A program made the position numbers and the translations under genes. Shown here one piece after another: positions 49,419-61,002 of a DNA stretch of 64,000 nucleotides. Position 1 is the first letter of the stretch. The number at the start of each line of letters is the position of its first letter. This stretch comes from Escherichia phage moha. Under the pieces are notes generated by a model. It did not search any database. It worked only from the letters and a program-made list of their open reading frames with translations, and was not told where the DNA came from. The stretch lies in the sequence record MN850590.1; one strand, given 5' to 3'.

Positions 49419-50054
49419 ATGAAAACTACTCCTATTACTATCGCTATTGACGCAATCGTAAAACAAGCTTCTTCTTTGGCTACTATGGCCAAAGTAATTA
49501 GTCAAAACCCTGCTCGTTATAATGCTATTCTAGAAACTCTTCGACGCCCAGGACTTAGCAATTATGAAAGCCGAGTAATTATTACAGGTGTTGGTAAGAA
49601 TGCTAATATTGCAACTAAAGCTTCTGAGACATTTGCTTCACTCGGTATCCCAAGTATGTACTTGAACACCGGGCATTATTCTCACGGTGATGCAGGATTC
49701 ATTGCGCCTAATGATGTGTTGATTCATATTAGTCGTTCTGGTAAGACCGAAGAAATGATAGGTGTTGCTAAACATCTTCGTATGATTCGTCCGAACGTCA
49801 AACAGATTCTGTTGCATTGTAACCCAGACATTCCACAAGAAAATGAAGCCCTTTTTGATTACTCTTTCTGTACAGGCATCGCAGTAGAGGTTGACGAGAA
49901 CTCTTTAGCTCCGACTATGTCTACTACATTGTTGTTAGCGCTTATCGATACGTTTGCTATCAACCTTTCGTCTGAGCGTGGATTTACCTCTAATGACTTC
50001 CTTAAGTTCCACCCTGGTGGTGCACTAGGTGCCATGTTACGAGGCGAACAATGA
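49419..50054 (+). CDS. SIS-domain sugar-phosphate isomerase (KdsD/GutQ arabinose-5-phosphate isomerase-like)
   Basis: 211 aa; GVGKNANIATK...HGDAGF...ISRSGKTEE aligns with KdsD SIS core GMGKSGHIG..HGDLGM..ISNSGES. Confidence 0.8.
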   Translation: MKTTPITIAIDAIVKQASSLATMAKVISQNPARYNAILETLRRPGLSNYESRVIITGVGKNANIATKASETFASLGIPSMYLNTGHYSHGDAGFIAPNDVLIHISRSGKTEEMIGVAKHLRMIRPNVKQILLHCNPDIPQENEALFDYSFCTGIAVEVDENSLAPTMSTTLLLALIDTFAINLSSERGFTSNDFLKFHPGGALGAMLRGEQ

Positions 50055-50194
50055 AAGCAATAACAATAGGACTTTTACTATTGATGCTTGTCATGACTAT
50101 CTACTGGAGCTTAACAGCTCCAGTAATGATTCCAACACTTGTAATTGGATGGATTATGATTGGACTACAAGCAAAGTATGAATGCTTTAACTAG
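50051..50194 (+). CDS. possible 47-aa membrane peptide (not in ORF track)
   Basis: ATGA overlap with SIS gene stop; hydrophobic with IGWIMIG; sits where T4 imm lies. Confidence 0.4.
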   Translation: MKAITIGLLLLMLVMTIYWSLTAPVMIPTLVIGWIMIGLQAKYECFN

Positions 50195-50235
50195 AATAGT
50201 GTACAATACTCCTACTTACCAATGAGGACTTCAAC

Positions 50236-51921
50236 ATGAAAAAAGCTGTTATTCTTGGTGCTGGATTGGCAACTCGTTTATATCCAATAACGCATCATAT
50301 TCCTAAGGTGCTTGTTAACTATAAACAAGACACTATTCTGAGCAATTTGTATACAATTTATTCTGACCTTGGCGCAGATGAAATTATTGTAGTAGTTCAT
50401 TCAAAATTTGCTGAAACTGTTCGAGCTTATTGTGAGCAAGAAGGGTTCAATGTGACTATTCGTACAGTTGATGAAGCGTATGGATCTGCTTATGCTCTTG
50501 CTAAATTACACAAAGATTTAGACGGCCATAATGTAATTGTTAACTGGTGTGATATTATTCCTGATTTTGGTTCATGGTCTTGGAATGTTAACGCAATCTA
50601 TGTTAAAGGTGACGAATGTCGATATAATTTCGACGGTGAAAATATCACTAACGTAGGTTCAACAGGTGGTAATGTTGTAGGAATTTATCAGTTCAAAGAC
50701 TGGGAATTCTATATGGGTTCTACTGATGAAGAAATTCATGAATACTGCAAAGGACGTGATTTCGTAGAATTCCTTTACGCCAGCGCATTCAATAAATCAG
50801 AGCTTATGAATCTAATTGATTTAGGTGATATGCCTAAACTTGAAAAGGCTCATGAAGTTCGTGAACTTAATCGTAGTTTTAATGCAGTTGAAATTGGTGA
50901 AGAAACTGTAACTAAATTCGCATTGACCGAACAGGGTCGAGCTCTTCAGAAAGATGAGATTTCATGGTATCTTAAAGTGAAATCGGATTCAGTTCCTCAG
51001 TTAGTTTCTGTTAATGAAAATAACTTTGAAATGGAACGCATTAAAGGTAAGCCGGCATTTGAATATATTAAATCCAAATCAAGTCTTGCTCGTCCACAAA
51101 TTGTTGATGCAATTTTAGATGCACTGAAATTCAGCACAGACACTTATTTTGTAAGTCCTGAAACTGTTCGTCGTGATTTCACTAAAGAATTCTATACGAA
51201 AGTTATTGATCGTTGTGAAAGCATTCAACCATTGATTGATTCATTTGGTAAAATCACGCATGTGAACTACACTAAGATTGGACGTCTGAAGCCAATGCTG
51301 AAACAAGCTTTAGAACACCTTATTCGTTATCATAACCGTTCTCAGGGGCAGTACTCTGTTATTCACGGTGACCCGAACTTCAGTAATACTATGATTACTG
51401 ATAACGGCGAAGTCAAGTTTATCGACCCTCGTGGATATTTTGGCGAAACCAAGATTTACGGGCCAAAATTGTATGATGAAGCTAAAGTGCTTTATGCTGT
51501 TTCAGGTTATGATGAATTCAATGCTAATCCGACCTGGGGACAGTTTACTATTGATGAAACAACTTGTAATGTGACTATTAACATCAATCCATTAGTTTAC
51601 AAATATGGAAAGATGAGTTCGTTTAACGAGTATCATCATTTGGCAGTGGCAATTATCTGGATTGCATTAGGTGGTTATTTCAAGAATAATCCACTTAAAG
51701 CGGTAGCCGCATATTATAAAGGTATGGAACTTCTGACTAAGCAATTACGTAACATGGGCCGTGTACTTCAGGACGGCTCTATTAGTTATGACGTAGCAGA
51801 ACCTGTAACGGCTACTCTGATTACAAAAAATCCTGGTAAATGGGTACTAACTGATAAAGAAACTGGTGTTTCCTATCGTCCAATCGGTGGCGATATCACT
51901 CATCAATGGGAACGAATCTAA
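50236..51921 (+). CDS. bifunctional sugar-1-phosphate nucleotidyltransferase / APH-choline-kinase-like sugar kinase
   Basis: 561 aa; N-terminal ILGAGLATRL nucleotidyltransferase loop; C-terminal HGDPNFSN...FIDPRGYFG kinase catalytic/Mg motifs. Confidence 0.85.
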   Translation: MKKAVILGAGLATRLYPITHHIPKVLVNYKQDTILSNLYTIYSDLGADEIIVVVHSKFAETVRAYCEQEGFNVTIRTVDEAYGSAYALAKLHKDLDGHNVIVNWCDIIPDFGSWSWNVNAIYVKGDECRYNFDGENITNVGSTGGNVVGIYQFKDWEFYMGSTDEEIHEYCKGRDFVEFLYASAFNKSELMNLIDLGDMPKLEKAHEVRELNRSFNAVEIGEETVTKFALTEQGRALQKDEISWYLKVKSDSVPQLVSVNENNFEMERIKGKPAFEYIKSKSSLARPQIVDAILDALKFSTDTYFVSPETVRRDFTKEFYTKVIDRCESIQPLIDSFGKITHVNYTKIGRLKPMLKQALEHLIRYHNRSQGQYSVIHGDPNFSNTMITDNGEVKFIDPRGYFGETKIYGPKLYDEAKVLYAVSGYDEFNANPTWGQFTIDETTCNVTININPLVYKYGKMSSFNEYHHLAVAIIWIALGGYFKNNPLKAVAAYYKGMELLTKQLRNMGRVLQDGSISYDVAEPVTATLITKNPGKWVLTDKETGVSYRPIGGDITHQWERI

Positions 51922-52307
51922 TGCCCCGTGTAGAAAACATGCTTAATCTTTGTTTTGATGTCGATGATTGCATCACGGAATGGAATAACAATCGTGATTA
52001 CGTGAACTTCAAACCAGACGTCGAAATGGTGTCTGCCATTAATGCCCTGTATGATGCAGGGCATACCATAACGCTTTACACTGCTCGTGGTATGAAGTCA
52101 GTAGGTCCTGGTCGTATAGCAATTGACATTCTCCCAAGTCTGATTCAGAACTTGGAAAACATTGGTTTGAAGTACCATAATTTGCTAACACATAAACCAG
52201 TATATGATTGGATTATCGACGACAAAGCTATGCGTCCTGATGAATTCAAAGCTCTTATGAATAAAGGCGAATTCGAAACATTTAAATCATATAAACCAAA
52301 TCTATAA
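51921..52307 (+). CDS. HAD-superfamily phosphatase
   Basis: 128 aa from ATG 51921 (TAATG overlap); motif I FDVDDCIT, later TARG and IIDDK. Confidence 0.75.
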   Translation: MPRVENMLNLCFDVDDCITEWNNNRDYVNFKPDVEMVSAINALYDAGHTITLYTARGMKSVGPGRIAIDILPSLIQNLENIGLKYHNLLTHKPVYDWIIDDKAMRPDEFKALMNKGEFETFKSYKPNL

Positions 52308-52364
52308 TAATTTAAGTAAGACCTGCAAAAACCATCGCATCAATTAACGTGAGATGCAAAAAAA

Positions 52365-60295: not shown

Positions 60296-60323
60296 CTTTC
60301 TATCAACTACAGAGGAAATTGAA

Positions 60324-60692
60324 ATGAAAAAATTAATCGCTTTAGCAATGGTATTTGGATTAACCGGATGTGGTGCCCATGGCTTTATCCCTAATAATGT
60401 CGGCCAATTGATTTACAATCCTAATGTTAAACAATATGAACAACCTAAAGTTGAAGTGGAAGACCCGGTTACTGTAGGTAATCGAATGATTCAAGCTGAT
60501 GCCCATGCTCAACGTTATCGTGACTCTGATACTGTAGCATTGTCAAAAGAACAACGCGTTAAAGAACATTGCTTACAGGCTACTGAAATCGCATTCATTC
60601 GCTATGTTGAAACAACTGGCAAAGAGCCTACCCAGAAACAAATCGCGAATAACTACGTCCAGTGTATTGAACGTTTAAACAAATTTAATTAA
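60324..60692 (+). CDS. lipoprotein
   Basis: 122 aa; signal peptide with lipobox LTGC. Confidence 0.8.
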   Translation: MKKLIALAMVFGLTGCGAHGFIPNNVGQLIYNPNVKQYEQPKVEVEDPVTVGNRMIQADAHAQRYRDSDTVALSKEQRVKEHCLQATEIAFIRYVETTGKEPTQKQIANNYVQCIERLNKFN

Positions 60693-60695
60693 TTG

Positions 60696-60725
60696 GTTTA
60701 CACCAAAGTTAAAACAAGATACTAT
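60696..60725 (+). promoter_or_regulatory. early promoter
   Basis: -35 GTTTACA / 17 bp / -10 TACTAT. Confidence 0.55.
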
Positions 60726-60753
60726 AAACATAACAAATCAAGAGGAAATTAAC

Positions 60754-61002
60754 ATGGAATTATTCGTAGCTAGTTCAGTAGCAGTTTTAATCGCAGGTAT
60801 TGGTTCAATCATCATTTACATGTTGCCTTGGGTAATCGCACTTATTCGTGGCACAAAAAGCACAACAGCAATCTTCTTTGTATCTTTACTCTTTAACTGG
60901 ACGATGATTGGTTGGATTGGAACTTTAATTTGGTCTATCGTTGCCGAAAAGAAATCTGCTCAGCAGCCTCAACAAGTAATTATTATTCGCGAAAAAGAAT
61001 AA
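60754..61002 (+). CDS. small membrane protein (possible superinfection-immunity type)
   Basis: 82 aa; two TM helices, GWIGTLIW motif. Confidence 0.7.
   Translation: MELFVASSVAVLIAGIGSIIIYMLPWVIALIRGTKSTTAIFFVSLLFNWTMIGWIGTLIWSIVAEKKSAQQPQQVIIIREKE

Follow-up and report, generated by a model that had tools for sequence, protein, structure and literature searches.

An Imm homologue and a probably unrelated Y02C-family protein encoded by an RB69-like phage

Background

In phage T4, immunity to superinfection is connected to the gene imm: according to the T4 RefSeq note, Imm changes the membrane and superinfecting DNA is held in the periplasm. One account describes a second protein of this kind of phage, Spackle, as a periplasmic protein that inhibits the gp5 tail lysozyme (PMC7677548). 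Homologues of both are encoded in the stretch of DNA studied here, 64,000 nucleotides (nt) of Escherichia phage moha (sequence record MN850590.1), which as a whole is referred to as the window. An earlier note on the window, made from the sequence letters, had proposed that two short open reading frames (ORFs) in it, one of 47 amino acids (aa; 50051-50194, plus strand) and one of 82 aa (60754-61002, plus strand), might both encode superinfection immunity proteins. Our analysis corrects this picture: the immunity gene appears to be the 82-aa ORF beside spackle (sp) and not the micro-ORF that follows the gene for a SIS-domain protein, and the motif that seemed to link the two is spurious. We consider it likely that they represent two unrelated genes of an RB69-like T-even phage, one for Imm and one for a protein of the Y02C family, both of which are already known and catalogued.

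Results and discussion

Assignment of the 82-residue protein

Over its entire length, the region 49300-52400 of the window showed 97-98% identity to about 150 Mosigvirus genomes, and by this measure the source phage is a Mosigvirus, that is, an RB69-like T-even phage. The 82-aa ORF, found with the GWIGTLIW peptide and at the position that the earlier note had given, matched the complete profile of the Pfam family Imm_superinfect (PF14373; positions 1-42 of 42, 57.2 bits at a gathering cutoff of 27.9, E=1.5e-15) as well as the PHROGs family phrog_1039, 'immunity to superinfection' (E=1e-30), and shared 65% identity with T4 Imm in a full-length alignment. Genes identical or near-identical to it carry the Imm annotation in many genomes (about 150 near-identical ones). 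A family alignment showed conservation of the Imm loop YMLPWVIALIRG and of the GW in helix 2; in the 82-aa protein YMLPWVIALIRGTKS and MIGWIG both occur and are conserved, which gives it a short basic loop with the LPWxIALxRG signature between the two helices and a GW in helix 2. AlphaFold2 predicted two helices, 2-32 and 37-69, with moderate confidence (predicted local distance difference test score, pLDDT, of 71), and the sequence AGAGGA is found 7 nt upstream of the start codon. Judged by these matches the ORF is the ordinary imm gene of the phage, already annotated in its relatives.

The protein shares with T4 Imm its length (82 versus 83 aa), the LPWxIALxRG loop, the GW motif and the two hydrophobic helices, and its gene likewise has imm.1 next to it and an early-type promoter-like site. 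The surroundings differ: in the window imm lies between dmd/DUF7279 and spackle, in the interval between genes 41 and 61, and its stop codon has no Y02C ORF coupled to it, whereas T4 imm is found in the 43-42 interval. From the 65% identity to T4 Imm, taken together with the T4 RefSeq note, we infer that the 82-aa protein confers superinfection immunity. It would be made early, as a two-helix inner-membrane protein, and would keep superinfecting T-even DNA from the cytoplasm as in T4.

Assignment of the 47-residue protein to the Y02C family

For the 47-aa ORF the position, the IGWIMIG peptide and the overlap with the stop codon of the SIS gene could all be confirmed. Its start codon and the TGA that ends the SIS gene overlap as ATGA, with GAGG (50041-50044) located 6 nt upstream, and this arrangement of a Shine-Dalgarno sequence followed by ATGA (50041-50054, plus strand) reads as a junction for translational coupling. 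The ORF begins 673 nt past the end of gene 43. In PHROGs it was connected only to phrog_3610 (function unknown; E=6.8e-27, residues 1-47 on a profile of 47 positions) and not to phrog_1039, and the 49-aa ORF found in T4 matched the same family (E=1.2e-25). The Pfam family PF26865, 'Phage_T4_Y02C', is recorded on proteins that are 94-96% identical to the 47-aa ORF and on distant members; the ORF gave no match in our local Pfam copy, a copy that does not contain PF26865. By these family matches the 47-aa ORF encodes a Y02C-family protein, the counterpart of RB69ORF054c, RB32 gp42.1 and the T4 49-aa ORF. The exact 47-aa sequence was present on 137 contigs and a tblastn search found the family in 764 phage records. 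Unlisted as it was when the earlier note picked it up, the ORF is thus not novel, being annotated as a hypothetical protein in relatives.

The start codon of the 49-aa ORF of T4 (MKSKIIAALLLILMIIISIYYSVTVPLMIPTIILGWSLLLLQVKYECIN) overlaps the stop codon of imm as ATGA, and the ORF closes 7 nt short of gene 42. The exact sequence is listed in UniRef as 'Uncharacterized 5.6 kDa protein in Gp42-imm intergenic region', and the family member of RB32 is named 42.1. In the T4 RefSeq entry (NC_000866), the 153-nt gap between imm and 42 (26220-26372; L006 4221-4373, minus strand) is unannotated though the ORF is present. RB69 and PhAPEC2 annotate a short form of 36 aa (RB69ORF054c), GADS24 the 47-aa form and Entb_45 none. 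A conserved and coupled putative membrane protein of 46-49 aa is in this way missing from the T4 RefSeq entry and mis-started in RB69.

The 47-aa protein aligned over its full length with T4 Y02C and RB32 gp42.1 at 53-60% identity, and like T4 Y02C it has all 15 residues that are invariant in the family. Its gene likewise lies downstream of gene 43, with a start codon that overlaps the stop codon of the gene before it. The differences concern the upstream partner, which is imm in T4 and the SIS isomerase gene in the window, the next gene, which is 42 in T4 and the arabinose nucleotidyltransferase/kinase gene in the window, and the N-terminus, at which the window protein is two residues shorter.

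Selection on Y02C and its range

Between genera the proportion of synonymous differences (pS) in Y02C was 0.5-1.0, i.e. saturated, versus a proportion of nonsynonymous differences (pN) of 0.13-0.35, and the ratio of the corresponding rates (dN/dS) was mostly 0.1-0.3 where it could be computed. Ten diverse members had 15 positions invariant in 10/10 (M1, K2, L9, I17, Y18, P24, M26, I27, P28, T29, W34, L39, Q40, C45 and N47), and the window protein carries 15/15 of these. In every intact copy examined the start codon overlaps the preceding stop codon by 4 or 1 bases, the sole exception being a frameshifted copy in Escherichia phage UPEC01, and the 3' end of the gene sits 7-41 nt before the next gene. 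Because synonymous sites are saturated while amino acids are conserved, with invariant columns and a consistent upstream overlap, Y02C is to all appearances under purifying selection and a real gene. The purifying selection, the Shine-Dalgarno sequence and the hydropathy lend indirect support to the idea that the protein is translated and inserted in the membrane of infected cells.

The same data bear on the idea that the 47-codon frame would be a relay that passes ribosomes on to the next gene, or a chance ORF. Such an ORF might be expected to overlap the upstream stop codon always and to end shortly before the next gene, as Y02C does, to be omitted or shortened in several annotations and to lack a match in the local Pfam copy. 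It would not be expected to conserve its amino acids at saturated synonymous sites with a dN/dS of 0.1-0.3, or to have the same invariant residues and hydrophobic pattern in phages ranging from those of Escherichia to Pectobacterium phage PM2, and curated models of the family exist. Moreover, two contigs (L044 and L045, 159 kb each) couple imm directly to gene 42, which shows that a relay ORF is not required. We regard this explanation as very improbable.

In UPEC01 (L012 2460-2602) the frameshift is found at a run of five T's, and only the C-terminal part of 33 aa is annotated. The frameshift may reflect an error in the sequencing or genuine slippage at this site.

A search with phmmer/HMMER over 1.84 billion representative proteins yielded only three small relatives, one of them from Pectobacterium phage PM2, next to spurious hydrophobic matches. 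Since there are so few relatives among so many representatives, the family (46-49 residues) appears confined to the T-even-type phages (Tevenvirinae) of Enterobacterales. Remote relatives were found neither in a profile search of the PDB nor in NCBIfam.

Relation between the two proteins

The shared GWI motif to which the earlier note pointed was at chance level. The longest word common to the two ORFs is IGWI, and in 20,000 composition-preserving shuffles some 3-mer was in common in 77% and some 4-mer in 10%, for which reason we rejected GWI/IGWI as a meaningful motif. Within the Y02C family the triplet at this position reads GWS, GWG, GWC, GWV, AWV, AWI, SWC or CWV, with W34 alone constant. 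The idea that the two ORFs are homologous was likewise rejected. The 47-aa ORF did not match the Pfam Imm family even at E<=10, an hhalign comparison of the Y02C and Imm family alignments gave a probability of 0.3% over 7 columns, and pairwise BLASTP showed a hydrophobic similarity of 17 residues only (E=0.022 for a single comparison). The Imm loop signature LPWxIAxxRG is absent from the 47-aa protein, in which the inter-helix region reads S-x-T-x-P-x-MIPT and has no basic residues. The comparisons indicate that the two proteins are unrelated and that the GWI match is a coincidence. Both are hydrophobic, and the two-helix layout ascribed to both was found in the AlphaFold2 model of Imm; the 47-aa protein was modelled as one continuous helix (2-46, pLDDT 91) and its hydropathy has only a shallow dip, at the Pro-rich residues 22-28.

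The proposal that both ORFs encode superinfection immunity proteins accordingly held for the 82-aa ORF, with its Pfam and phrog_1039 matches and its identity to T4 Imm, and failed for the 47-aa ORF, which has neither an Imm match nor the signature. In its stronger form the proposal would make the 47-aa protein a short Imm or a subunit that cooperates with Imm. For this speaks that Y02C is ATGA-coupled to imm in Tequatrovirus, Gaprivervirus and contig L035, an arrangement typical of co-functioning proteins, that both are small, hydrophobic, early proteins and that BLASTP does find the weak 17-residue similarity. The hhalign result, the missing Pfam match and the lack of family conservation of GWI count against it, as does the position of the genes 10.6 kb apart in the window and in about 150 Mosigviruses, where imm has no Y02C downstream. 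Each of the two genes is also found alone, Y02C without Imm in phage EcS1 and imm joined to gene 42 without Y02C in L044 and L045. Furthermore, T4-like phages of Klebsiella (138 records) have Imm, and Klebsiella is not among the organisms named for Y02C. Cloned imm by itself is said to give immunity, in work by Lu and Henning from 1989, which also counts against a two-protein system. Taken together we find an immunity pair improbable, and two unrelated genes remain the preferred explanation.

A Rosetta stone was sought in a fusion of Imm and Y02C. Just one Imm is elongated (P0014, 102 aa), a variant in which the stop codon was lost, and its read-through of some 20 residues is out of frame with Y02C; the candidate was discarded.

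Gene order across lineages

The earlier note had placed the 47-aa ORF exactly where imm lies in T4, which is imprecise: the order in T4 is 43, imm.1, imm, the 49-aa ORF and 42, and the 47-aa ORF is the counterpart of the 49-aa ORF. The positional intuition nevertheless had a real basis, as the gene orders suggest, in that Y02C is coupled to imm in T4, RB32, Gaprivervirus and contig L035. When '>' denotes a start codon that overlaps the upstream stop codon, the order is 43, imm.1, imm>Y02C, 42 in Tequatrovirus; 43, imm>Y02C, imm.1 and, further on, uvsX in Gaprivervirus; and 43, imm>Y02C, imm.1, SIS, x, nucleotidyltransferase in the metagenomic contig L035. EcS1, CHI14, Entb_45 and PM2 share the order 43, imm.1, SIS>Y02C, nucleotidyltransferase, in which the SIS gene occupies the place of T4 imm. 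In Mosigvirus, including the window, the order is 43, SIS>Y02C, nucleotidyltransferase, with SIS directly after 43 and with imm.1, imm and sp 10 kb downstream. In all lineages Y02C thus seems to keep its own slot just past the position of T4 imm, while Y02C, imm and imm.1 are reshuffled among themselves downstream of gene 43.

A true Imm coexists with Y02C in the window and the Mosigviruses. In EcS1 (NC_055721; L030-L033), Y02C is present and Imm was found neither with a hidden Markov model (HMM) built from T-even Imm sequences nor by tblastn or the signature motif, in 173.4 of 175.4 kb (2000-175437), the remaining 2 kb being the inside of rIIA. Conversely, in contigs L044 and L045 imm overlaps gene 42 directly and there is no Y02C. 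Because EcS1 has Y02C without Imm and these contigs have imm without Y02C, Y02C does not appear to be an obligate partner of Imm.

EcS1 retains spackle, imm.1 and Y02C and also has a gene for DAHP (3-deoxy-D-arabino-heptulosonate 7-phosphate) synthase (ORF234). One EcS1 protein was considered as a hidden Imm, namely ORF143 (L031 42438-42944), a membrane protein of 168 aa; it belongs to phrog_2203 and has no match to Pfam Imm, and was dismissed.

Gapriverviruses are without known enzymes for non-canonical bases (PMC8056088). They have Y02C between imm and imm.1, and a role of Y02C in cytosine modification, via gene 42 or the arabinose genes, was rejected on that ground.

Possible role of Y02C

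Bacterial proteins of at most 50 residues, such as AcrZ, MgrB, KdpF and CydX, act by binding a larger membrane protein. They have one or two transmembrane helices, and Y02C is like them in size, in hydrophobicity and in having specific invariant residues; there is no sequence relationship, and Y02C differs from them in being encoded by phages, those of the Tevenvirinae only. By analogy we tentatively propose, as a possibility that is open to considerable doubt, that Y02C inserts early in the inner membrane and there packs a helix specifically against a membrane partner, and that it is not a copy or subunit of Imm. Independently of this proposal, the protein is in all likelihood translated by coupling to whichever gene is upstream (imm or the SIS isomerase gene), and historically it appears to belong to a small cassette of envelope genes (imm.1, imm and Y02C) downstream of the polymerase gene. 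The packing would involve the invariant residues Y18, P24, MIPT26-29, W34, Q40 and C45, and the partner could belong to an envelope process linked to Imm.1 or be a host inner-membrane protein.

A competing idea is that Y02C is a peptide with non-specific membrane activity, comparable to a type I toxin or a holin/antiholin, and perturbs or reseals the inner membrane. A length of 46-49 aa, the extreme hydrophobicity, the single long helix in the AlphaFold2 model and the lack of relatives outside the T-even phages would all fit such a peptide. The persistence of 15 invariant positions across genera with saturated synonymous sites favours a specific interaction instead, since these positions include a P-x-MIPT turn and a polar C-terminal QxK(Y/F)xC tail. 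In addition, Y02C is found in the region of the early replication genes and not with the lysis genes, and its coupling ties the stoichiometry of the protein to that of the upstream gene. A non-specific activity therefore seems to us a poor candidate, with little probability, and a specific interaction is preferred.

A connection with Imm.1 was suggested by the numbers of records, counted by the first word of the organism name as marginal totals and not per genome, with Imm.1 given as the T4 type plus the long type where both are counted. Over all records Y02C was found in 764, Imm.1 in 778 and Imm in 1040. For Escherichia the numbers were 543 (Y02C), 481+73 (Imm.1) and 582 (Imm), for Shigella 78, 75+3 and 85, for Enterobacteria 43, 38+5 and 43, for Salmonella 14, 11+3 and 62, for Tequatrovirus 10, 10 and 10, for Serratia 8, 2+6 and 9, and for Citrobacter 6, 6 and 15. 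Klebsiella (138 records with Imm) and Proteus (9) are not among the organisms named for Y02C or Imm.1. The Y02C counts come close to those of the two Imm.1 subfamilies added together and depart from those for Imm. Y02C and the Imm.1 lipoprotein might then form a pair that excludes superinfecting phage or protects the envelope as a second layer that does not depend on Imm, and such a pairing would explain why both persist in EcS1-like phages that lost Imm. Like Spackle and Imm.1, Y02C belongs to a set of co-located early genes whose products target the envelope, and its distribution over records is close to that of Imm.1; Spackle and Imm.1 differ from it in being exported with signal peptides, as soluble or lipid-anchored proteins, whereas Y02C is a predicted integral membrane peptide. 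On balance we rate such a pair as unlikely. A strict co-occurrence of Y02C and Imm.1, suggestive as the counts are, was rejected, since L044 and L045 contradict an absolute rule.

Imm.1 (DUF5481/phrog_1754) accompanies imm and Y02C in every lineage examined. In the T4 RefSeq entry the gene (L006 4637-5014) carries the label 'iduronate sulfatase', for which this analysis gave no support.

Several points weigh against the interpretation given above, both for the separation of Y02C from Imm and for its proposed role. The absence of Imm from EcS1 rests on an HMM of T-even sequences, tblastn and a motif, and a very divergent Imm could escape these; ORF143 of EcS1 does have a weak match (E=4e-4) to the second half of Imm. 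The coupling of Y02C to imm in three lineages leaves a functional link with Imm possible there. The signals on topology disagree, with a single helix in the AlphaFold2 model versus a hydropathy profile and prolines that resemble those of a hairpin: the hydropathy dip and the invariant P24 and P28 suggest that Y02C could be folded as a tight hairpin. The agreement between Y02C and Imm.1 stems from marginal counts by organism name and not from a cross-table per genome, a weak Imm.1-like lipoprotein (E of about 1e-6) occurs without Y02C in L044 and L045, and L020 and L021 have no imm.1 within 4 kb. Finally, the searchable literature contains no mention of Y02C, ORF054c or the '42-imm intergenic' protein, which makes the mechanism pure inference. 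A broad literature search on ribosome profiling and small proteins of T4 gave nothing of relevance to the Y02C ORF.

For experimental work, Y02C is a cheap and well-defined knockout target in T4. The classic constructs of the imm region may or may not have included it.

The imm.1-imm-sp block and its promoters

The 82-aa imm gene of the window is part of a block imm.1-imm-sp that is kept in about 154 records. The imm.1 homologue (60324-60692, plus strand) encodes a predicted DUF5481 lipoprotein of 122 aa with an FGLTGC lipobox, and it matched PF17578 (E=2e-9) and phrog_1754 (E=5.8e-29) and showed 33% identity to T4 Imm.1. The gene sp (61066-61359, plus strand) was identified by its match to T4_Spackle (PF25676, E=1.2e-42). 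Three near-identical sites of the form TTTACA-17-TAnnAT, one in each spacer, resemble T4 early promoters; all three are consensus matches on the plus strand, TTTACA-17-TACTAT before imm.1 (60267-60295) and before imm (60697-60725), and TTTACA-17-TATAGT before sp (61008-61036). As there is a promoter-like site in each spacer, imm.1, imm and sp each seem to have their own early-type promoter. Upstream of the block are dmd (59837-60049) and the DUF7279 gene (60012-60263), and downstream of it is the primase gene 61 (62737-63759), all on the plus strand.

Neighbouring genes of Y02C and other observations

Upstream of the 47-aa ORF, gene 43 (gp43, 46667-49378) is followed by the gene for the SIS-domain sugar-phosphate isomerase (49419-50054), identified by a Pfam SIS match (E=1.9e-10) and by the annotation in relatives (RB69p055). 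Downstream of it is the gene for a bifunctional nucleotidyltransferase and kinase (50236-51921, RB69 ORF53_52c; Thomas 2018, PMC6024577), with a match to NTP_transferase (E=8e-10) and weak kinase-fold matches. In RB69 both of these flanking genes, SIS and nucleotidyltransferase, are part of the DNA-arabinosylation pathway (PMC6024577, PMC13326640), and RB69p055 is given in a pathway table as the arabinose-5-phosphate isomerase (PMC13326640). The small ORF that separates the two genes is given no role in either of these papers on RB69 modification. Further downstream, past 51921, follow a small phosphatase-like gene, a U32-family gene and a thymidylate-synthase-like gene, and beyond the latter uvsX, gene 40 and gene 41; all these genes are on the plus strand.

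Enzymes of the U32 family, e.g. RlhA and TrhP, are prephenate-dependent hydroxylases. In the window the U32-family gene (52365-53525) is followed by an ORF of 79 aa (53522-53761) that has no Pfam match. The corresponding small gene of phage PM2 (L034 7684-7926) matches the chorismate mutase family PF01817, and that of Entb_45 is annotated as chorismate mutase. A 2026 paper on RB69 in Nucleic Acids Research mentions neither U32 nor prephenate nor chorismate. The pair of the U32 gene and the 79-aa ORF might provide the hydroxylation step for the 5-hydroxycytosine modification.

Right after primase gene 61, an ORF for a strongly hydrophobic protein of 65 aa is present on the opposite strand (63756-63953, minus strand). 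Entb_45 likewise has a small coding sequence on the opposite strand beside its primase gene.

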